From Gekko japonicus (taxonomy: Eukaryota), in the NCBI RefSeq assembly GCF_001447785.1, contig NW_015164186.1:1737142-1801141 (forward strand): a stretch of 64,000 nucleotides of DNA. Reading direction: 5' to 3'. Under the pieces are notes generated by a model. That model had not been told where the DNA came from. It searched no databases and saw nothing but the letters and a program-made list of their open reading frames with translations. The position numbers and the translations under genes are program-made. Below, piece by piece: positions 6,373-62,378 of this stretch; positions within the stretch are counted from its first letter, which is position 1, and every line of letters starts with the position of its first letter.

Positions 6373-7273
6373 CTACCAATAAGGGTCACGGATCTCTGAC
6401 CGCCGCCAGGTCTGCAAGCGAGAGAGGACCAAAGCTGCAGCCCGAGAGGTCCCCAGAGGCTCCCCAGCCCCAATAGTGCTCTTTGCCAGCCGCGAAAGGG
6501 CACCGGGAGGGGAAGCAGCCACCACCTGGCGTATTCTGTAGTTCTTCCCTTGGTTGTTGTCCCAGTAGACTTTTGGGCCGGACTGGAAGGAGATACAGAA
6601 CTCAACAGACCCGCAAAGAACTGGACTTTTGGGCAGAGCCACCTCAAAGGAAAATGCATCCGTGTCCATATAGCCGTATGTATTGTGCAGATACTGACAA
6701 CAGATGTCCTGGAAAGTCTTCCAGGAGTCAAAGGTGATCCGGATGTACACTTTCTTCTCGTAACTAATGTTTCTGACTTTGACAGTCCCAGAAAGGGACT
6801 TCTCTTGGATCAGGCAGCTTTCCAAGGAAACCAAACTGCTCTGTAGGCGACTGCGAAAAGCGGAATAGTCAGCAGAGGGTTGGGAGAAGTCCAGCACGTA
6901 CTTTATCATCTCAAGCCGGGGGGCCCGACACTTGTTCCGGAAGCTGGTCAGACTGGACAGGGCGTGGTGCAAATCACACAGGTCTTCCTCGATCTTGGAG
7001 AAGATCCGTACGGCTGTGAGCGAGAGGCCCTTCATGTCAGCAAAGACCACCTTCTTCTTCTTTTTGGCCCGGCAGCCCTTGGCGCCCTCCTGCCTCTCGG
7101 GTTCAACGCAGAGGCAAGACCTCAAGGGCTGGTGCCCCAGGCCGCCTCGCAGCTCCTCATAGGAGTCCAGCAGCTTACGGATAGGAGGAGGGTGGCTCAG
7201 GCAAAGCCGCATGGCCCGGTCTCCTGGCGTGGCTCGGGGCACAATGGCCCGTGTACTGAGCACCTGGAAAAGG
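6373..7273 (-). CDS. PPP1R3C-like glycogen-targeting PP1 regulatory subunit, coding exon 2 (CDS join 9681..9694, 6373..7273; 304 aa)
   Basis: Open frame with AMRLCLSHPPP, the RVxF motif KKVVFAD plus KGLSLT, LDFSQPSADY and a CBM21 domain (GTVKVRNISYEKKVYIRITFDSWK...WDNNQGKNY). The acceptor CCTTTCCTTGCTTTCAG ends at 7274 and the phase fits exon 1. Confidence 0.93.
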
Positions 7274-7640
7274 CTGAAAGCAAGGAAAGGGGTTAGTGGC
7301 CACCTTGGAGATGCCACGTAAGGACTGGAAATGACCTGCAACTTAGGGCTGCTGCTTCACATGCGCCTAACTGCTCCAAACATACAGAAAATCAGAAAAA
7401 GTACTCATCATATCATGCCAGCCTCCATGTTCACTCCCATCCTGGAAAGCTGATGTACGCAAGGGCTTTTCCATACATGCCTCAGTGACAAAATAGCACA
7501 GAGGCAAATACATACATTCAAACTACAGTTTAAATGATCTTCAAGGGTGCATGTGTGCATCCTTTTATTTGGAGATGCTGGGGATTGAACGTGGGACTTT
7601 CTGCATTCAAAGCAGATGCTCTGCCAATGAGCCCCACCCC

Positions 7641-10093: not shown

Positions 10094-11064
10094 ACAAATT
10101 AAACCATCCCCTATTCCAGATCTGCTGTGTCTCTCTGGCTAAAAGCTTTAGATTTGACCATAGGAGATCTGAGTGCTCCGCTATGGATCCTTAGGCAAAC
10201 CACATTCTCACTCCCAGCCTCAGCAGCACCACATGCAAAATAGGAATATCAGTAGACTGCCTCACAGAGGTGTTGAGAGAACAAAGACTTAAAAGTACTT
10301 TAAGCATTCAAGGCTACCTAAGGCTTTTATCTCTGAATTTAACGAGGCTAGGATGGATGAGAACACATTCCAGGAGATCTAACAGTAAAAGAGCCAATTG
10401 CCCATGGTTTGCTGGAAAATCCAGCAACACTGTAATAGTAAAAAATGCGCAAATAAATCTAGCGAGCAAAGCTTCCCCCCATTGCCTCTTTTTTTTGGTT
10501 GGGCTACACCAGTTGAATTTTTCCCTCTTAGGCAAAAAGAAAAGAGTTGGCAATCCGCTTTGGAAGCTGTTTGGAAGCACAAATTAAACCATCCCCTATT
10601 CCAGATCTGCTGTGTCTCTCTGGCTAAAAGCTTTAGATTTGACCATAGGAGATCTGAGTGCTCCGCTATGGATCCTTTAGCAAACCACATTCTCACTCCC
10701 AACCTCAGCTGCACCACATGCAAAATAGGAATATCAGTACACTGTCTCACAGAGGTGTTGGGAGAACAAAGACTTAAAAGTACTTTAAGCATTCAAGGCT
10801 ACCTAAGGCTTTTATCTCTGAATTTAACGAGGCTAGGATGGATGAGAACACATTCCAGGAGATCTAACAGTAAAAGAGCCAATTGCCCATGGTTTGCTGG
10901 AAAATCCAGCAACACTGTAATAGTAAAAAATGCGCAAATAAATCTAGCGAGCAAAGCTTCCCCCCATTGCCTCTTTTTTTTGGTTGGGCTACACCAGTTG
11001 AATTTTTCCCTCTTAGGCAAAAAGAAAAGAGTTGGCAATCCGCTTTGGAAGCTGTTTGGAAGCA
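10094..11064. repeat. 485-bp near-perfect tandem duplication (10094-10579 / 10579-11064)
   Basis: ACAAATTAAACCATCCCC...GCTGTTTGGAAGCA occurs twice with only a handful of differences. The ORF track shows the duplicated ORFs. Confidence 0.95.
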
Positions 11065-25576: not shown

Positions 25577-27163
25577 CTGCAAAAGGAAAGACACAGCATA
25601 AGAACTGCAGAGCCATCTGTATACGGTAAAGTGCTCTAAAGAACTGCAACAGTGATGGCTGCCAAGGACCGGAGAAAGGCTCTAATGAAACCCAAGACTG
25701 ATCCAAAACCTCCCCAGGAATGTGAATCTTACAAAATGCTCCTGCCCAGCAAAGCATCCCCTCAGATGATGGTGCCTCCCATTCTCCAGGCTTAACGTGT
25801 GCCACAGCAGGGCACAAGGAAGGCAGAGAGCCCCGGAAGCAGCCACATTAGCCAGGTCCCCCAGCACAGCAGATGCCATTGTCCAAAAGCCACTCAGCAC
25901 ATCACTTCCTTCTACTCCACTACTTACGGCTCAACTATGCAAGATCTATGCATGGGAATTCCATCAGCATACACTTGATCAGTGGGAAAAACAATTGCTC
26001 CCCCAGGGCTGCCTCAGGTCAGGCAGAAAACGTGCCAGGGAGGACTTAAAGCCCTGCTCCCCCCAGATCACAATCCTGTTATGAATCAGATCCCACACAC
26101 TTGGTTTTCAGAGGAAAAACTCAGTTCTGATGAGTAACGCCACTTCAGTTGTGAACAGGGCAATCCATCTATAGCAAATGGCTTTCAGACGACACCTTGA
26201 GGAAATCTAGGGCTTGTCAAAATGTTCTCACAACTCCTCATTGAGAAGGCCAGTAAGTGTGGACAACATTCTCAGAAAGGCTTGTCATTATTTATTTAAA
26301 ATATTTATACCCTGTCTTTCAGCTAAAGCATTCCCACTGTGTCTAACCAAAAATTCAATTCCAAAATTCAATGAAAAATACAGAGATACAAAGCAGCCAA
26401 CAGGTTCCCAACGCCATTCAGTCTCCTCCGCCCGCCCTCCAAAGGATCAGAACTGTTTTGCATTCACTGTGACTGAATTACATCTGTTTATTACAGACTG
26501 TTTCCTTTTACACAGAATGCAGCCGTTGCAGTTTATAGGAAGCAAACAGGACAGAGAGTGGCTCTTTAAAACCCTTTTTACTTCAAGCCATTTTTTTCTT
26601 ACTGAGAATAACGTCCCATGAGTTGCTTTCTTGACCGACCATTACAAAAAGGATGCAAGAACTAGATAAGAACATTATACTTCCACCCTAAAAAGAAGAG
26701 AGAAAGGGACCCCCCCCATGGTGTTCCTCAAGAAAGGTGCTTCAAAGTCAAAGGGTCACCTGCCCGCCACTCTTCTCCTCTCTAACAGAGCACACCCAGA
26801 GCAGGACTTCATAGACCACCTCCACAGTCGTCTCCTGCAACATGCAGCTTCAGAGCCCATTTCAGGCCTGGCAGATGCCCCGTGGAAACTGAAAACATGC
26901 CCTAGGAAGGCATCCCAGAATTCTCTGCAACACAACAAAAGCCAGAATTGCTTTCAGAATCCTATCCAGAACTGAATAGATGCCACAGGAGAGAGTTCTG
27001 GAAAGGGAGGTTGGGACCATTTAACAATTCTTGCTGGGAAATACAAGAAGTCTCTGGAGAGATAATGGGGCAGGTGGCTGGTCCCTGAAGAGGCAGCCCC
27101 TGGCAAGCCTCCATGCAGAACAGCTTGTTACATATGCCAAATGGGTCAAAAGGGGGCCAATAC

Positions 27164-30650: not shown

Positions 30651-30740
30651 CTGTTCCAGGCTGCGGATGAGCTGGGCCGGGGTCAGCACCACCTCTTCGC
30701 TCCCAGCCTCCGAGCCCTCCTGGTCCGGCTCCTCCGCCAT
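30651..30740 (-). CDS. GINS4: GINS4 coding exon 1 (CDS total 666 nt, 221 aa)
   Basis: MAEEPDQEGSEAGSEEVVLTPAQLIRSLEQ|GT in a CpG island. All seven exons join in frame. Confidence 0.96.
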
Positions 30741-30744
30741 CGCT

Positions 30745-31190
30745 GGCCGAAAGCTCCGCCGTCTCCCGCCACCAGTTCCAACGCAGTGACGTCGACACCG
30801 CGCGCCGCACCGAGGCGATCCGCCCCTCATGAATATGCATGAGGATTGGTCTTTTCCCGCCTCTTAAAAAGGCGGCGTCGCGTTTGGGAGCAGATTCCGG
30901 CGCTTGAGTGCTTGACTTTGCACTTTGTCTGTTCTGTAAAGGGTTCAGGTTTGTATCGCCACAGCGGCCGAAAGCTCCGCCGTCTCCCGCCACCCGTTCC
31001 AACGCAGTGACGTCGACATCGCGCGCCGCACCGAGGCGAACCGCCCCTTATGAATATGCATGAGGATTGGCCTTTTCCCGCCTGCCTCTTAAAAAGGCGG
31101 CGTCGCGTTTGGGAGCCGATTCCGGCGATCGAGTGCTTGACTTTGCACTTTGTCTGTTCTGTAAAGGGTTCAGGTTTGTATCGCCGCAGC
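30745..31190 (-). promoter_or_regulatory. GINS4 CpG-island promoter, tandemly duplicated (~221-bp unit)
   Basis: Copies at 30745-30965 and 30966-31190. Each has TGACGTC (CRE-like), ATGAATATGCAT (POU MORE-like), ATTGG (CCAAT) and TTTTCCCGCC (E2F). Confidence 0.85.
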
Positions 31191-51854: not shown

Positions 51855-53612
51855 CTGACACAAAATTATTCAGGATGGTGAGCAAGGTTGACTATGAAGA
51901 GCTCCAGGAGGATCTCCACAAACTAAACGAGTGAGCAACAGTGTGGCAAATGAAGTTCACTATGGGCGTGGTCAGACGCGCTGTTTGATCTGGTGTGTGA
52001 CGGTTCANNNNNNNNNNNNNNNNNNNNNNNNNNNNNNNNNNNNNNNNNNNNNNNNNNNNNNNNNNNNNNNNNNNNNNNNNNNNNNNNNNNNNNNNNNNNN
52101 NNNNNNNNNNNNNNNNNNNNNNNNNNNNNNNNNNNNNNNNNNNNNNNNNNNNNNNNNNNNNNNNNNNNNNNNNNNNNNNNNNNNNNNNNNNNNNNNNNNN
52201 NNNNNNNNNNNNNNNNNNNNNNNNNNNNNNNNNNNNNNNNNNNNNNNNNNNNNNNNNNNNNNNNNNNNNNNNNNNNNNNNNNNNNNNNNNNNNNNNNNNN
52301 NNNNNNNNNNNNNNNNNNNNNNNNNNNNNNNNNNNNNNNNNNNNNNNNNNNNNNNNNNNNNNNNNNNNNNNNNNNNNNNNNNNNNNNNNNNNNNNNNNNN
52401 NNNNNNNNNNNNNNNNNNNNNNNNNNNNNNNNNNNNNNNNNNNNNNNNNNNNNNNNNNNNNNNNNNNNNNNNNNNNNNNNNNNNNNNNNNNNNNNNNNNN
52501 NNNNNNNNNNNNNNNNNNNNNNNNNNNNNNNNNNNNNNNNNNNNNNNNNNNNNNNNNNNNNNNNNNNNNNNNNNNNNNNNNNNNNNNNNNNNNNNNNNNN
52601 NNNNNNNNNNNNNNNNNNNNNNNNNNNNNNNNNNNNNNNNNNNNNNNNNNNNNNNNNNNNNNNNNNNNNNNNNNNNNNNNNNNNNNNNNNNNNNNNNNNN
52701 NNNNNNNNNNNNNNNNNNNNNNNNNNNNNNNNNNNNNNNNNNNNNNNNNNNNNGGGAAAGAGATCTTGGGGACATAGTGGATAGCTCAATGAAAGTGTCA
52801 ACCCAGTGTTCCACAGCAGTAAAAAAAGGCCAGTTTTATGTTGGGGATTATTAGGAAAGGGACTGAAAATAAGACATCAAATAATATTTTATTTTTATTT
52901 ACATTATTTACTTTACTTGCAGTCTGCCTTTCTCACTGATACCTAAGGCAGATTACACAATGTAAGTCAATGCCCTGTATAGATCTAGGGAGTGGCTCCG
53001 TTTGGAATACTGTGTGTAGTTCTGGTCACTCCATCTCAAAACAAACATTGCAGACCTGGAAAACATACAGAAGAGGGCAGCCAAGGTTATTAGGAGGTGA
53101 CCTATGAGGAAAGACTGAAGAGTTTCCTCATTCCCTATGAGGAAAGACTGAAGAGTTTTGGGACTTTTCAGTTTAGAAAAGTGATGACTAAGGGGGGGGG
53201 GACATGACAGAGGTTTATAAAATGTGCACAGAGCAGAGGGAGTGGACAGAGAAAACACTGGAATTTGGGGGTACCCAATGAAGGTGGATGAGCAGTAGAT
53301 TCAGGATGGGCAAAAAGAACTACTTATTTACTCAAATAATTAAAATGTAGAATTCACTGCCAGATGATGTAGTGATAGCTGCAGGAATAGATGGCTTTAA
53401 AAGGGAAAAAAAGCCATTGGTGACAAAAGAGACCCTCCACATGTAAAGGCAGTAAACCTCTGAATACCAGTGCCAGGAGGCAATATGCGGGGAAGGCCTT
53501 CACCTCTGTATCCTGTTGCTGGCCCTCTAGAGTAGCTGAATGGCTGCTGTGTGAAACAGGATGCTGGACTAGATGGACCACTGGTCTGATCCAACAGGGC
53601 TCTTCTTATGAC
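51855..53612 (+). mobile_element. Degenerate CR1 LINE 3' portion spanning the gap
   Basis: ADTKLFRMV...ELQEDLHKL...WQMKF, ERDLGDIVDSSMKVSTQC and LEYCV.FWSLHLK, ending in CTGATCCAACAGGGCTCTTCTTATG. Confidence 0.85.
52008..52753. other. Assembly gap (746 N)
   Basis: Run of N. Confidence 1.
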
Positions 53613-55287: not shown

Positions 55288-56399
55288 ACAAGAACTAAGC
55301 ACTGATTCAACCCTTCCTGCTCTACCTCTCGTGATTTGCCTAAGTTCACACAATCAGCATTATGATCCTTTTTAAAGTTGAAAGCATGATATAAATGCAA
55401 AGGACTATTTGTAAGATTATCTGTAAGACACAAGACCAGGACGCATCTCTCTTCTGGCAATCACTTGGAGAGACCCTATCACTCAGCTTCCATTGCCCCC
55501 CACACACCCCACACTGGAATAAGAACATAATATCAGGCCATAGCACATTGCAATAAAGCCCCTACAACTGTATACAGAAATACTGAGCTTCCCTACCATT
55601 TGCCACAACTAGCCCACCACACAACCAGGATCAAGACTCCTAAGTGGACCAACAGACAGGCATACACTTGTTTGAGAAACTGAGTATTACATTACAACAC
55701 CTCTGGAACATTACAGATCAGTAGAGGCAGCACTGCACAGTGGTCAGAGTTGCAGATTGATGTGGGGAGACCCAGGTTTGTATTCTCACTCTGCTGGCTG
55801 AGTGACCTTGGGCAAAATCTCCCCTTCTCTCCCTAACCTACCCCACAGGGTTGTTGTGAGGATGAAATGGAGACTCATGGGCAGGGTCCCCAGCTTCCCT
55901 GGCAGGAACACTATGTTAAGAAATCTCTCACAATTATGCAGCCATAGCAGGCAGGAGGGAAGGAGGCGAATACCTCCAGCACCAGAGACTTGTAGAGGAA
56001 GAGTCAAACTTTGGGGACTCACCTGTGCCCCAGAGGGCCAAGGCAGCAGGGGGAAAATAGTTACTTTTTCCCACCATAGAGAACAATGGAGGGGATAGGG
56101 GCAACCTGTTTGGGGGCCCGTAGAATTGGACCCCCTGGTGCAATGTTCTTCAAACTTGGTTGGTATCTTGGGTAGAGGCTCCAGCAGCTACCCTGCGGGT
56201 TTGGAGCCTCTCCCTCAAACCCCCTCCCCTCCAGCTCCCGGAATATACCCTATGTTTTCACCATTGACTTCAATGGCCCATAGGATATAATGGGGCCGAA
56301 ACGTACATTTGGCTGGCCCTTTTCAGGCCCGGCGTTCTAGCGCAGAACCTGAAAAAGATGGGGAGGGCGGCTCTGCAGGCCGAGCCTGAAAAAGGTGGG

Positions 56400-57720
56400 G
56401 AGGACAGCTCAGCAGCCCCCCCCCCCGTGGTTGCATCTGTCGCCGAAAGTGGCGGCAGCAGGGGCCATAACTTTTTAAAGACCCCTATCAAGAGCTGGGG
56501 GAGAGGTGGAATTTGCCCCTACCAGTCCAAGGCCACTACCCCGGGGCTCAGGGAGGCAAGGGAATGTTTCACCCCACCCCTCCCCCCTGTGCCGGCGTCG
56601 CAGCTGCCGAGAACAGTGACGGCGGCCATAACATTTTAAAGAGCCCCTCCCGAGAGCTGGGGGAGCCAGAAAGACCTCTCACATGTGATGCTGCTCGGAC
56701 ATCACGCGCAAGAAGTTGAATTTGCCCCTGTGAGTCCAAAGCCATCACTTCGGGGCTCAGGGAGACAAGGGAACGTTTTGCCCCTCCGCTCCCCCCCCCC
56801 GCGCCGGCGTCGCAGCTGCCGGTGAGAACGGTGGCGGCAGGCATAAATTTTTAAAAAGCCCCTCCCTCCCGAGAGCTGGGGGAGCCAGAATGACCTCTCG
56901 CGTGTGATGTCACACGTGAAAGGTGGAATTTGCCCCTACGAGTCCAAGGTCACCACCCCAGGGTCACACGCGAATGGTGGAATTTGCCCCTACGAGTCCA
57001 AAGCCACCACCCCGGGGCTCAGGGAGGCAAGGGAACGTTTTGCCCCTCCCCTCCCCCCACGTCCCAGCTGCCAAGAACAGCGGCGGTGGCCATAAGTTTT
57101 TTAAGAGCCCCTCCCAAGAGCTCGGGGAGCCAGAATGACCTCTCCCGTGTGATGTCTGAGTGGCAACGCCGCTCGGACATCACACGCGAGAGGTGGAATT
57201 TGCTCCTACGAGTCCAAAGCCACCACCCCGGGGCTCAGGGAGGCAAGGGAACGTTTTGCCCCACCCCTCCCCCTCCCCCCTGCGGACATCGCAGCTGCCG
57301 CCAAGAACAGCGGCGGCGGCCAGAACTTTTAAAAAAGCCCCTCCCGAGAGCTGGGGGAGCCAGAATGACCTCTCATGCTCGGACATCACACGCGAGAGGT
57401 GGAATTTGCCCCTACGAGTCCAAAGCCACCACCCCGGGGCTCAGGGAGGCAAGGGAACGTTTCGCCCCTCCCTTCCCCTCCGCGGGCATCGCAGCTGCCA
57501 CCAAGAACAGCGGCGGTGGCCATAACTTTTTAAAGAGCCCCTCCCGAGTGCTGGGAGAGCCAGAATGACCTCTCGCGTTGCTGCTCGGACATCACACGCG
57601 AGAGGTGGAATTTGCCCCTAAGAGCCCAAAGCCACCACCCCGGGGCTCAGGGAGGCAAGGGAATGTTTCGCCCCACCCCTCCCCCCGTGCGGGCGTCGCA
57701 GCTGCTGCTGAGAACAGTGA
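56400..57720. repeat. GC/CpG-rich tandem array, ~206-bp unit, about 6.5 copies
   Basis: GAATTTGC.CCT...GGGGCTCAGGGAG.CAAGGGAA recurs near 56508, 56717, 56924/56978, 57194, 57400 and 57606. Confidence 0.92.
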
Positions 57721-57721
57721 T

Positions 57722-60700
57722 GCATACCGGAACCAGAGCGAGCAAAGGATCTAAGCAACAAAGACTTTCCCGATACTACGTAACAACTATCGACAATAAA
57801 TGTGAGTGAAGGAACTGTAAAATAATAAGCATTAAGTGGGAATCGGCAGATGGCAAAACTTCAAGTCTAGAAAGGGGGAGGGAAGCTTCTCAGAGGGGTA
57901 GGAATAACCCTACCCTAGACAAAACAGCGAGAAAAGTAATAAAGGAAAACTAGAAGCCAAGCTGAAATAAAGCCAAGAGCTTGCCTAACTCACATTGAGC
58001 GCAGAGAGCTACATCTTAGATCACAAGGAAGAATCTTGGAACTTTTGGGAACTTTTGTCCTTAACGTAAACAATGTCTCAGTGAGGGGGGAAAATGTTGG
58101 CCAGAGGGAAACTGAACACAGGAACTGCCAGCCTTGCATCACCAGTCACAAGACCGGAACCAACTGCAGACATTGCCAGCATGATCTCTGAAGCCTTGTG
58201 CCCTCTGCTGGATCAGATGACTAATCTCAACAAAAACTTTGATGTGTTACAGAAAGAGCTTAAAGAGACTAAGATAAAAACAGAGAAGACAGCCAAAAAG
58301 CTGAAAAAGGTTGAACACAAGACAAAAACATTGGATCAAAGAATGGAGATAGTGGATAAAGTGAGGACCTCTGTACAACAATAACTATTACAGCTCCAAG
58401 TGGAAAGATCAATGTCTATCTTGAGACTTCAAGGTGTCCCAGAAAAAAAAATGAGAATCTGAAAGAGATCTTAAACGAAGCATTGGCTCCCCTGATTAAA
58501 TATAAACCCGAAGCATTAGAAGCAGACATGGATATAGTGTACAGGACATATTCAGAATTTGTTAAGAAAAATAACCTTCCAGGGGAAATATTTGTAAAAT
58601 TCTCTAAAAGTTCTACAAGAGACCTGATTCTTAAAGCCTGTAATGGGACAATATTAAAAATTCAAGAAGAAATTAAGATCTTAAAGGATGTTCTATTTGA
58701 GATAAGAAAGAAGAGGAAGCAATACAAAAACATCACATCTTTTCTCCAGAGCAATTCAACTCAGTATCGATGGATTATCCCAGAAGAACTCATTGTCAAC
58801 TTTAATGGAAAAAAAGAAAAGATTGACACTTTTGCTAAAGCTGAGCTGTTTCTGAAGCAACGTCAAAGTCCAGCAGCAGATAAAGGAAAAGCAGAGGACA
58901 ATAAAGATACACCAAAGAAAAGCGAACAACATGAGCCAGGCAATGACAGTTCCTCATCATCTTCTTCGGTATCAATGGGTGAGATTTTTGATTCTGACTC
59001 TGAATCTAAAATGGGAGCAGCTGCTCCCAGATCATACAAGGTTAAATTCCCATGGGAGAAGAAGAAGAAACGTAAAGGAAAGAAAATAAATCTATGAAGA
59101 TCCGAGATTCCCCTTTGAAATTGTTTTAACAATGGTGATGTAAACTACTCAATCTAATACTCCCCCCCCAAATGGGGAATTTTTTATTGCATTTTTATTA
59201 AAACTACAAACTATAACAGAAAAAAGGGAGGGGACTACATTTAGGGGATAAAGAAAAGATACCCACTACTGACTAAAAACCCAAGAGAGAAGATCTTCTA
59301 ATCAACTTGAATACACATCTAGTCTTAATCATATTAATCTCATTATTTATTTTATTTTATTTAATTTTTATTTATCTTTCAACTTTCTACCCCGCTCGAA
59401 CCCCCAGGGGGTCTCTGAGCGGCTTACAGTTAATCGCTTATCCCTACCTATGGCCACATATGCTGGGGATGGGGACTGCCCTACCGGCACCCTGTGGAGG
59501 TCTTTATCTTCTTCCTCCCGGTCGGCTTGTCGGCTCGGCTTTATTCTTCCTCCTCTGGCCCTCCCAGCTGGACTCTTAAAAATTCTCTCGCTTTCAGAAC
59601 AGAGTCAATCTTTTCTTTTTTATCCTTGATTTTGAAGGTGACGCATTCTGGAATTAGCCATCTATATCCAATTGAATTTGTTTGAAGAAAAAGAACAAGG
59701 TCTTTATATTTCTTTCTCCGCTGTCTTATTTCAAATGGAATACCCTTCAGTACTCTGATAACACTCTCCCCAGCTCTCAGGGGTGCCCCAGATACTGCTT
59801 TCAGGATTGCATCCCGTACATGCCTCTTTGAGAATCTAACAATAATTTCCCCAGGCAGATTATTTTTCTTTATGTATCCTGAATATGACCTATAGGCCAC
59901 ATCCATTTCGCTTAGCAAAAATTCTGCCTTCATCTCTGTCACTGGGGCCAGTATTTCACTCATCATTTCCTTCAGATTCTCTCCTTAGTCTCTGGCATGT
60001 CCTGAAAGTGAAGGATCATATTAGCTGTTTCCATTTGTAATTGCAGCAACTGCTCTTCTGTAGAAACTTGCTTTTTTCCAGTTTTTGTACTTTCTTCTTC
60101 ACCTTTTGGGTAGTGGCGTCCACTTCTTTCACCTTCTCATTTGTTTGATTCATCATTTTCAGAGTCTCGCTTATCTGATTTTGTTGAGTGGTGATACACT
60201 GAGTCATTGATGTCATCTGCTCTTTGAGATTATTCATTTGGTCCAGCAGGTGGTGCATGGAGTCTGCCAAAGTCTTTGCCCGCTCGTTGGCTCCTTCCGG
60301 TTTTGGGCTCTCAGTTACTTTCGATTTCAGATGTTTCGCTTTCTCTGTCCTCTTCCCCACTATCTTTTTTGCTTTGTTTACTTTCGCAGACTTTTTGAAA
60401 GTCTCTGAATATGCGCTTAAACACTTGCACTCGCCTTGGTAAGTACTCCTTAACAGTTTTAACCGTTTATACTTCCACTCCTCCCCTCAATCGCTCTAAA
60501 GTCTATGCACTTGAGAGGCGTCCCTCCCCCTCTCGCTTTATCTTCTGTTCCGTGGGGTGGGGGTGGGGAGTTTCTTTTTTTTAGTCAATGCTTAAACGAC
60601 TCACGTTCATAATCGGTCCACAGACTTCGTTTACACTCCATTTCTAACGCTCGATCTCCTGCGCTTGCCCCGGTCAGTGTCACTTAGTCCATTTGGTATC

Positions 60701-61162
60701 TCAGCACGAAGAACCATCAGAACGGAGAGGTGCCTCAATTCTCCGACATTGCGCCATCGAAGAGGCAACCTCTCAAAAGCTCCATGGCCAGGGTCCCTTC
60801 AGCCGGGTCCCTGGGGGAGTAGTGAGCCTGTACACCCCCTCCTTCAGCTGGAGCGCAGCTTCATCCCGAGGAGGTCCGGGAGGTGAGTCTGCTAGCGTGC
60901 CGCCATCAACCGGAAGTCCTACTCAATCTAATCCTATTTTTATTTTATTTATTTATTATTTTATTTATTGTTAACATTTTTACCCCGCCCTCCCCATGAG
61001 CCTTCATTTTTATAAATTTAACTTTTATAATGTAATTTTAAGCATTAGGGAATTATCAAAAATCGAAATTAGACTATCAATGATCCTTGCCTACTCTGTA
61101 TTTTAGATTGCAGTTTGTAGTAGGTAGATGTAGTGATAGAAGCAATAAAAAATGTAAAAAAA
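57722..61162 (+). mobile_element. Outer L1-type ORF1-only element (ORF1 ~58073-59097, disrupted; 3'UTR split by a nested insertion)
   Basis: Coiled-coil, then LRLQGVPE, MDIVYR, LPGEIFVKF and YRWIIPE (L1 ORF1p RRM/CTD-like). No ORF2. Ends AATAAAAATGTAAAAAAA at 61144-61162. Confidence 0.7.
59159..60919 (-). mobile_element. Inner full-length L1-type ORF1-only element with 14-bp TSD
   Basis: 5' end GGACTTCCGGTTGATGGCGG at 60919. ORF1 remnants at 60016-60360 and 59541-59966. AATAAAAATGCAATAAAAAA near 59180-59200. CTACTCAATCTAAT at 59145-59158 and 60919-60932. Confidence 0.8.
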
Positions 61163-62378
61163 CCCCCAACATATGTGAAAGAACCTCATGTGGCTCCTGA
61201 GCCGCAGTATGACCACCCCTTCCATAGAATCTGCCTTCCAAACTGGTCATTTTCTTCAGGTGAACTCATCTCTGTCACTGGAGATCACTTGTAATAACAG
61301 AAGATTTCCAGCCACCACTGTCCATTGGGTAGTATTGGACTGGGGTCTGTTTTTGATTCCATACTCTGCCATGGAAACTCCCTTGGAGATCCTGGGCCCA
61401 AGCCCATCGCACTCTGTCAACCTAACCTATGGTACCTCACAGGGCTTTTGTTGTGAGGATAAAATGAAGAAAGGGAAAACAATGTCGTAAGCCACTTCCA
61501 GTCCCCACTGGGGAGGAAAGCAAGATATAAAGATCTAAATAAATGTAATTGGCAATCTGGTAAAAATCGCCCTAGGAAACTTCACTGGATATTTTATGGT
61601 CTGCCAACTGGCCTGGAAAAAAGTAAAAGCCCAATTTAAAAGGTCAGGCTGATATTAACAGGACAGCTAGAGGGACCAGTTGATACATTGGCAACCCTGC
61701 TGTGGGCACACAAAAAAATCCATTTCAATGTATAGAGTGATTGGAAAAGTCTTGAAATGTGACTTCTTCCCTCACCAAACTGGAATTTAAAGTTTCCTCT
61801 AAAATTCCTTTAGCTGGATAATGAAGTCAGGGCTCTTCAACTACCTGCATTGTTTGTGGACTATAACATTTTGCTGCAGTTGGCCAGGCCATGTTCTCAT
61901 ACAAACATTCTCTGTTTTCCTCTTTCTTGCACACACACAGTCACATGTGCTTTTAAAAACAAAAGTTGCCGGAAATCAGCCTGAGGAACGAAACTTTTGT
62001 CGTGCCAAAGCATCTGTTCCATCTCTGCGCAGGAATGTGACTCTCTCTATTGCTTTCACTGGTAGAGTTCAGTTGGAGAGAGCAGATGTTACAGCAAGGT
62101 ATGTAGCAAAGGCTGGCCACAGCCCCAAACCCACTTTCAGGTGTGTGAGTGAAGAGCATTGCAGCTGAGTAGAAGTCAGTGAGTGCTGGGAAAAAAGATG
62201 AATGTGAATTCACCCACAGTTGGGTTGAAAAAAGTATTGGCAGTCCGGTCAAATTGGGACTAGGAAAGATCTCAGTGGCCCCTTGCCCTGGAGGGGCTGG
62301 CAGCCTGGAGCAAGCCAAGATGAGACCCAAGGATGCTGGTAGTACCACTGGGGCTGCCTGGCTTGCACCTAACTAGCA

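Follow-up and report, generated by a model that had tools for sequence, protein, structure and literature searches.

HAL1 elements are L1-derived retroelements that encode only ORF1p, the product of the first open reading frame (ORF), and they have several origins in mammals (PMC5753468; PMC13756887); in the guinea pig, HAL1 ORF1 stayed coding for about 29-44 million years (PMC3627910). Other bipartite, non-autonomous long interspersed nuclear elements (LINEs) that bear an ORF1 are HeT-A, of the Jockey clade, and Ag-Sponge, of the CR1 clade (PMC5786205). Lizard L1 elements of clade 1 total 6.15-6.70 kb, with a 5' untranslated region (UTR) of 792-1,465 nt, an ORF1-ORF2 spacer of 0-110 nt and a 3'UTR of 194-570 nt; lizard L1 3'UTRs hold C-rich and T-rich tracts and AATAAA, and Anolis L1 families are few-copy (PMC5381506). 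In the same paper, Boissinot and Sookdeo give the lizard clade-1 5' motif as two halves nine bases apart, with a near-identical start in zebrafish L1. In this report, we describe a 1,760-nt L1-type unit without ORF2 on the minus strand of a 64,000-nt stretch of the Gekko japonicus genome (RefSeq assembly GCF_001447785.1, contig NW_015164186.1, positions 1,737,142 to 1,801,141), referred to as the window.

The principal result is that this unit, the inner element, is highly repeated along its whole length and lies inside a second ORF1-only element, the outer element. We think it likely that the inner element is a dead full-length copy of an abundant, HAL1-like family of ORF1-only L1 derivatives in squamates, and that it inserted into a member of a second, less abundant ORF1-only family.

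Anatomy of the inner element

The inner element and its parts are as follows.

59159..60918, minus: decayed full-length copy of the inner ORF1-only L1 derivative, 1,760 nt
59145..59158: target-site duplication, left copy (reaches 59161 with one mismatch)
60919..60932: target-site duplication, right copy (reaches 60935 with one mismatch)
60364..60918, minus: 5'UTR, 555 nt, 58% GC, 28 CpG
59541..60363, minus: L1 ORF1 (coiled coil, RRM, C-terminal domain (CTD)), broken, 823 nt, true stop uncertain
59180..59540, minus: 3'UTR, 361 nt with the TAA at 59541 taken as stop
59345..59430, minus: within the 3'UTR, a piece resembling the 3' tail (stem-loop and AATAAA-type repeat) of a different short repeat that is abundant in the window
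59261..59296, minus: 3'UTR block of 36 nt common to diverged relatives, with loose ends of RNA reads at both edges
59162..59179, minus: 18 nt specific to the inner copy, separating six A from the duplication; no poly(A)

The original prediction, made from the sequence, of a unit of about 1.76 kb bounded by a 14-bp direct repeat was borne out: 1,760 nt separate the two copies of CTACTCAATCTAAT, which are identical over 14 nt and agree at 16 of 17 positions when extended. An exhaustive count over the window found this to be the sole exact 14-mer recurring at a spacing of 1,700-1,850 nt, and in a sampled chance test, whose sampling took in the site itself, 4 of 5,000 pairs reached 14 nt. Read on the minus strand, the element begins with GACTTCCGGTTGATGGCGG, and the first 19 nt of its 5'UTR resemble both the 5' consensus of lizard clade-1 L1, with a shorter spacer, and the 5' end of zebrafish L1. 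The L1-style start had thus been recognized correctly, save for an extra leading G that is also the last base of CTACTCAATCTAAT. At the other terminus stand C-rich and T-rich tracts, AATAAA at 59199-59194 and at 59188-59183, and six A; the predicted pair of signals is present, and the short A-run proposed with it is these six A, which overlap the second signal and form no true poly(A). The UTR lengths had been put at about 500 and 300 nt; the first is close to the measured 555 nt and the second falls short of the 361 nt listed above.

The 18-nt copy-specific end forms a small hairpin of a C-run and a G-run. It is similar to the stem-loop at 61480-61540, which belongs to a common short repeat, and may have arisen by a template switch as copying began.

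The ORF1 of the inner element is of L1 type, as predicted, and is not an open frame. Its start codon reads ATA (60363-60361), and two frameshifts, near 60071-60073 and at 59982, split it into three pieces, the longest of 147 aa. The three pieces align in order on a single relative of 305 aa, P0001, the two upstream ones covering its residues 9-86 and 88-117, and we therefore read the gene as a complete coiled coil-RRM-CTD ORF1 split by two frameshifts. Searched against 1.84 billion protein representatives, the 147-aa piece gave 239 matches at E ≤0.001, the best being P0001 at 47% identity. The top ESM Atlas match was an 'L1 RRM domain' cluster (0.96). A profile built from 25 of the matched sequences had LINE-1 ORF1p as its four best matches in the PDB, with the human protein on top (E 8.5e-13), and an AlphaFold2 model (pLDDT 85.6) retrieved human LINE-1 ORF1p at Foldseek ranks 1-10 (E 3e-5 to 2e-3), with 16-19% identity in the structural alignments. 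A word-index protein search gave no match at E ≤0.001 for the 147-aa piece among 436 candidates of longer lengths, and found P0001 itself alone among 2,624 candidates when P0001 was the query. Names were available for 10 of the 20 relative clusters checked and all 10 are lizards or snakes, which supports the squamate setting. Two Gekko japonicus relatives, P0004 and P0017, are annotated 'apolipoprotein A-IV-like'; they are candidates for ORF1-only transcripts in geckos.

No sequence for endonuclease or reverse transcriptase was found in the unit, in agreement with the earlier reading. From the stop to the end of the element there are 361 nt, which leaves no room for ORF2, and none of 60 long ORFs scanned (out of 101 window ORFs of at least 95 aa) matched a Pfam family of either enzyme. 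On the element's strand, no frame past ORF1 stays free of stops for more than 78 aa; the 78-aa frame (59368-59604, minus) runs from the end of ORF1 through the embedded repeat tail. Other copies of the family have indels at 59498-59519, and the family's ORF1 may, on these sequences, stop downstream of 59541, possibly within the tail.

The embedded tail at 59345-59430 matches the tails of five other repeats of the window, scoring in 5 of 5 cases above 300 shuffles each, and folds into a stem-loop of -21.7 kcal/mol (z -2.5; 4 of 200 shuffles equally good). We assume that it resembles the ends of L2-clade elements; a literature search on the motif gave nothing relevant among the titles listed. 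It may be family-wide: none of the listed joints leaves it out, and its upstream neighbour seems to be present in a diverged relative (a loose end at 59428 supported by 10 X22 reads), with repeats at 59337-59380 skipped in the read alignment. Local depth peaks in the 36-nt block (650k-854k at 59290), whose fold is unremarkable (z -0.5) and which may be a conserved signal. A search with Rfam over 56000-62000 gave one sub-threshold match, to mir-1294 (29 bits vs 90), which was rejected.

Repetition of the unit and its nesting in a second element

Repetition was assessed by aligning 57750-61500, at 80% likeness, to two DNA runs (X1 and X2, from the same study and either of them possibly the origin of the window, as Logan contigs) and two RNA runs (X21 and X22), all of one organism; summed contig depth is used here as a sign of many copies, not as a copy number. 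Contigs with 0-1 differences from the flank, which are locus-specific, have a depth of 60.9-85. All 14 bins of the inner element, including the one at the ORF1/3'UTR junction, are far above this, the lowest standing at 25,595 in X1 and 43,979 in X2. Median bin depths for 3'UTR, ORF1 and 5'UTR were 233k, 376k and 132k in X1, and the corresponding medians in X21 were 184, 288 and 92 reads. In both DNA runs and one of the RNA runs, the 3'UTR and the passage from ORF1 into it equal ORF1 in repetitiveness. An AT-rich repeat inflates the bin 59262-59387 and leaves the adjacent bins unaffected. The listed places from the ORF1 stop to the embedded tail have depths of 10.8k-72k, the lowest place of the ORF1-3'UTR stretch being 59505 (10.8k-10.9k), and the whole stretch from ORF1 to the 3' end is repetitive at each listed place (10.8k-650k). 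In X1, a depth of 195,004 at 59180 then gives way to 54.8 at 59162, and thus the end of the family coincides with the end of the unit. The proposal of a non-autonomous ORF1-only family that moved as a unit is supported by this repetition of all bins and by the sharp 3' edge.

Most aligned contigs are less than 95% alike (10,251 of 14,404 in X1 over the whole stretch). Where the inner copy reads ATA, other copies have ATG (all of a depth of 21,366 in X1, and 85 of 87 X21 reads), and they hold a base at both frameshifts (at 59982, in 49 of 180 X21 reads); the inner copy is therefore dead and belongs to a family whose ORF1 is open. Among the 24 best-supported loose ends, out of about 2,530 rows, those near the end of ORF1 and in the 3'UTR resemble diverged versions, not one common break; none lies at 59180 with a common continuation, and those at 59245-59261 seem to be one end in diverged forms. 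X21 reads over the inner element are nearly unstranded (1,499 vs 1,829), 42 of 7,250 being 99% alike, and X22, with few reads, leans toward first mates on the minus strand (141 vs 72); these counts were not taken as evidence for transcription of the inner copy, and no RNA run was listed as containing the locus. Searches for related loci found none in 3 stretches of viral contigs, 119 of genome contigs and 595 of metagenome contigs. Five metagenome loci picked up by a 20-nt pattern of the 5' end were dismissed as chance, with matches of ≤29 nt and no ORF1.

The inner element sits in the 3'UTR of the outer element, which lies on the plus strand and went unnoticed in the original prediction. Its parts, and a third, small insertion, are as follows.

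57750..58093, plus: repeated sequence upstream of the outer ORF1 (depth 470-3,400), probably part of the outer 5'UTR, 5' end undefined
58094..59097, plus: outer ORF1, broken by a stop at 58382-58384 and a frameshift in the A-run 58443-58451
59098..59161, plus: outer 3'UTR, first part, which holds the target site (joint 59161-61005)
60936..61004, minus: separate short insertion beside the right duplication, a repeat 3' tail of 69 nt, lacking in another copy of the outer family
61005..61162, plus: outer 3'UTR, second part, in which AATAAA (61144-61149) is followed by seven A (61156-61162)

Measured from the outer ORF1 stop, the target site is 48 nt downstream. In X2, a contig of 214 nt that shows 18 differences over 174 nt links 58988-59161 straight to 61005. 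This joint implies at least one other outer copy in which the ORF1 stop is about 230 nt from AATAAA and neither ORF2 nor the inner element nor the 69-nt tail is present. A second joint of the outer family, from 59107 to 61060, agrees with it. The 59161-61005 joint belongs to a 10%-diverged paralogue, and no empty-site allele of the inner locus was among the listed joints. The outer family is the less abundant of the two, with depths of 890-41,000.

Directly upstream of the outer element lies a CpG-rich tandem array (56500-57720; 62% GC, 76 CpG, period about 206 nt). By analogy with mouse L1, it could be a 5'UTR of the monomer type, or it could be an unrelated repeat; lizard L1 5'UTRs are reported to be free of tandem repeats (PMC5381506).

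The two ORF1s share 53% identity over 137 aa, and 66% over 326 nt of DNA. Over these 137 codons the proportions of nonsynonymous and synonymous differences (pN and pS) were 0.30 and 0.71, giving substitution rates dN and dS of about 0.38 and 2.2; pN/pS was 0.42 (bootstrap 0.31-0.54), with synonymous sites near saturation, and codon positions 1, 2 and 3 held 51, 39 and 70 differences. As far as these sequences tell, the figures show purifying selection on ORF1 along the path between the two elements. Inner, outer and P0001 cluster with an SH-aLRT of 95 in a quick, unrooted tree of 72 of 112 rows that bears no labels of known autonomous elements. The 3'UTRs of the two elements are not significantly alike (score 36 vs a shuffled maximum of 62), and neither are their 5' regions (35 vs 50).

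Elsewhere in the window, a 327-aa ORF (6373-7356, minus) carries a CBM_21 domain (E 2.4e-30) and is presumably a gene for a glycogen-targeting phosphatase subunit. About 6 kb upstream of the locus the assembly has a gap, a run of 746 N (52008-52753), and a self-comparison revealed near-identical tandem duplications at 10094-11064 (486 nt, 98.6%) and 30735-31190 (about 230 nt, 93%).

Weighing the explanations

How such a family could have moved can be outlined from mammalian L1 and HAL1. An internal RNA polymerase II promoter in the CpG-rich 5'UTR would yield an RNA of 1.7 kb ending at the AATAAA signals; this RNA would encode its own ORF1p, which would coat it in cis; and the ORF2p of an autonomous L1, presumably, would nick the target, copy the RNA by target-primed reverse transcription and leave a duplication of 14-17 bp. 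The anatomy suggests that the family most likely derives from an L1 of the lizard clade-1 type that lost ORF2 and kept both UTR ends.

Several observations weigh against this reading. The autonomous L1 partner or parent was not found. The inner copy has no poly(A) at its target site, as 18-21 nt of other sequence follow the six A that overlap the second AATAAA. Mammalian L1 endonuclease prefers TT/AAAA, a preference that the inner insertion, cut at T/AG on the sense strand, fits poorly. The outer element has no duplication longer than 8 nt and no 5' motif that we could find. At the protein level, Pfam alone makes no call for the 147-aa piece (PF02994, E 0.17), the piece as a single sequence had no match in a PDB sequence search, and Foldseek TM-scores to human ORF1p were modest (0.35-0.46). 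As for repetition, depth does not count copies, the loose ends viewed were the 24 best supported and the joints viewed 15 of 24, and no listed contig piece spans the whole stretch, Logan contigs being short, so that a second full-length copy was not seen end to end. Lastly, the low dN/dS between inner and outer could stem from autonomous ancestors, before the loss of ORF2, because the two 3'UTRs are not significantly alike.

The strongest alternative holds that what we call the 3'UTR is an ORF1-ORF2 spacer, a long one, in which a poly(A) signal acts prematurely; the short copies would stem from 3'-truncated transcripts of a full-length L1 master and would not propagate themselves. Lizard clade-2 L1 spacers do reach 270-384 nt (PMC5381506), retrotransposed 3'-truncated ORF1 RNAs have been discussed for mammals (PMC4859970), and full-length masters could hide among loose ends beyond the 24 listed. 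We nevertheless find it improbable: the 5' end of the inner element is of clade-1 type, where spacers do not exceed 110 nt, its 3' end has the tracts and the AATAAA of lizard L1 3'UTRs, and the 24 best-supported loose ends show no common continuation at 59180. Less probable still, and by a wide step, is that a non-L1 LINE enzyme moved the element by reading the embedded stem-loop tail. This would account for the missing poly(A), and the tail does fold, matches the tails of five window repeats and seems to be shared by diverged relatives; however, the family extends about 170 nt beyond it, and the end it reaches is of L1 type (depth 147k-233k at 59136-59261); enzymes that read such tails start at the very end of the RNA.

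Two further explanations, which we credit equally and marginally less than the tail-reading enzyme, do without a family of this kind. Since end-to-end reading is limited to the inner copy, an ordinary L1 might have suffered a one-off internal deletion at or after insertion here, the outcome that would have overturned the original prediction. The depths speak against it, as the stretch from ORF1 to the 3' end is repetitive everywhere listed and the junction is so in X1, X2 and X21; nor does 3'UTR depth rise far above that of ORF1, as would be expected of 5'-truncated ordinary L1s, and the spot also holds a second, diverged element built alike, whose join recurs in another copy. With the flanks read being those of the inner copy, one decayed locus might instead have been amplified segmentally or in satellite fashion, without retrotransposition; the sharp fall in depth at the 3' end, the preponderance of contigs less than 95% alike and the freedom of other copies from the inner lesions count against this. 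An abundant ORF1-only family that retrotransposed thus remains our preferred explanation.

A bolder proposal we advance tentatively, and doubt that it will hold in full: that inner and outer belong to one old squamate lineage of single origin, with families down to 53% ORF1 identity, saturated synonymous sites and replaced UTRs, an ORF1 under purifying selection throughout without ORF2, at least one very abundant family in a group whose autonomous L1s are described as few-copy, and one that fixed a foreign stem-loop tail. If it were true, the lineage would provide a long-lived, non-mammalian test of the idea that ORF1p made in cis lets an RNA capture ORF2p in trans.

Comparison with HAL1, lizard L1 and other ORF1-bearing elements

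ORF1-only LINE derivatives are already known, and the two elements would extend their range to squamates; they do not represent a new mechanism. A literature search, including term look-ups in PMC5203782, bioRxiv 050880, PMC3880073 and PMC5381603, found no ORF1-only L1 family in reptiles in the parts of these sources available; Repbase, Dfam and Bao & Jurka 2010 lay outside this search, and a prior catalogue entry is possible. An independent squamate origin of the ORF1-only strategy, as originally proposed, is likely, and is a modest point because HAL1s have already been reported with several origins (PMC5753468). That all ten named relatives are squamate argues, at the level of sequence, against descent from mammalian HAL1/L1M, in a comparison that held no mammalian HAL1.

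The natural case for a need of ORF1p in cis, with ORF2p open to borrowing, comes from HAL1 elements, which the papers cited here describe from mammals alone. Abundant ORF1-only families derived from lizard-type L1 would give an independent set in which to measure selection on ORF1 without ORF2. Such squamate families would be easy to mislabel as ordinary L1 or as host genes, as may be the case for the 'apolipoprotein A-IV-like' gecko relatives.

Compared with HeT-A and Ag-Sponge (PMC5786205), the plan is the same, a LINE 5' part, an ORF1 and a 3' part with reverse transcriptase needed in trans; the LINE clade is another, the ORF1 type is unrelated, and there is no sign of telomere targeting here. 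With lizard clade-1 L1 such as Anolis L1_AC (PMC5381506), the inner element shares both halves of the 5' motif, a coiled coil-RRM-CTD ORF1, an A-rich sense strand, the size of its 3'UTR, C/T-rich tracts and AATAAA. Unlike those autonomous elements it lacks ORF2, is 1.76 kb instead of 6.15-6.70 kb long, has a 5'UTR of 555 nt and a two-base gap in the motif, and its family is apparently far more abundant than the few-copy L1 families of Anolis. The closest likeness is to mammalian HAL1: both are L1-derived, multi-copy, limited to an L1-type ORF1p without ORF2 and non-autonomous by anatomy, and the inner unit has a target-site duplication as well. At its 3' end, the inner element has its six A overlapping AATAAA and the outer one AATAAA followed by seven A. 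What sets the gecko locus apart from mammalian HAL1 is its squamate host, an ORF1 closest to those of lizard and snake L1, an inner copy without poly(A), a foreign repeat tail in the 3'UTR, and two deeply diverged ORF1-only families found together.

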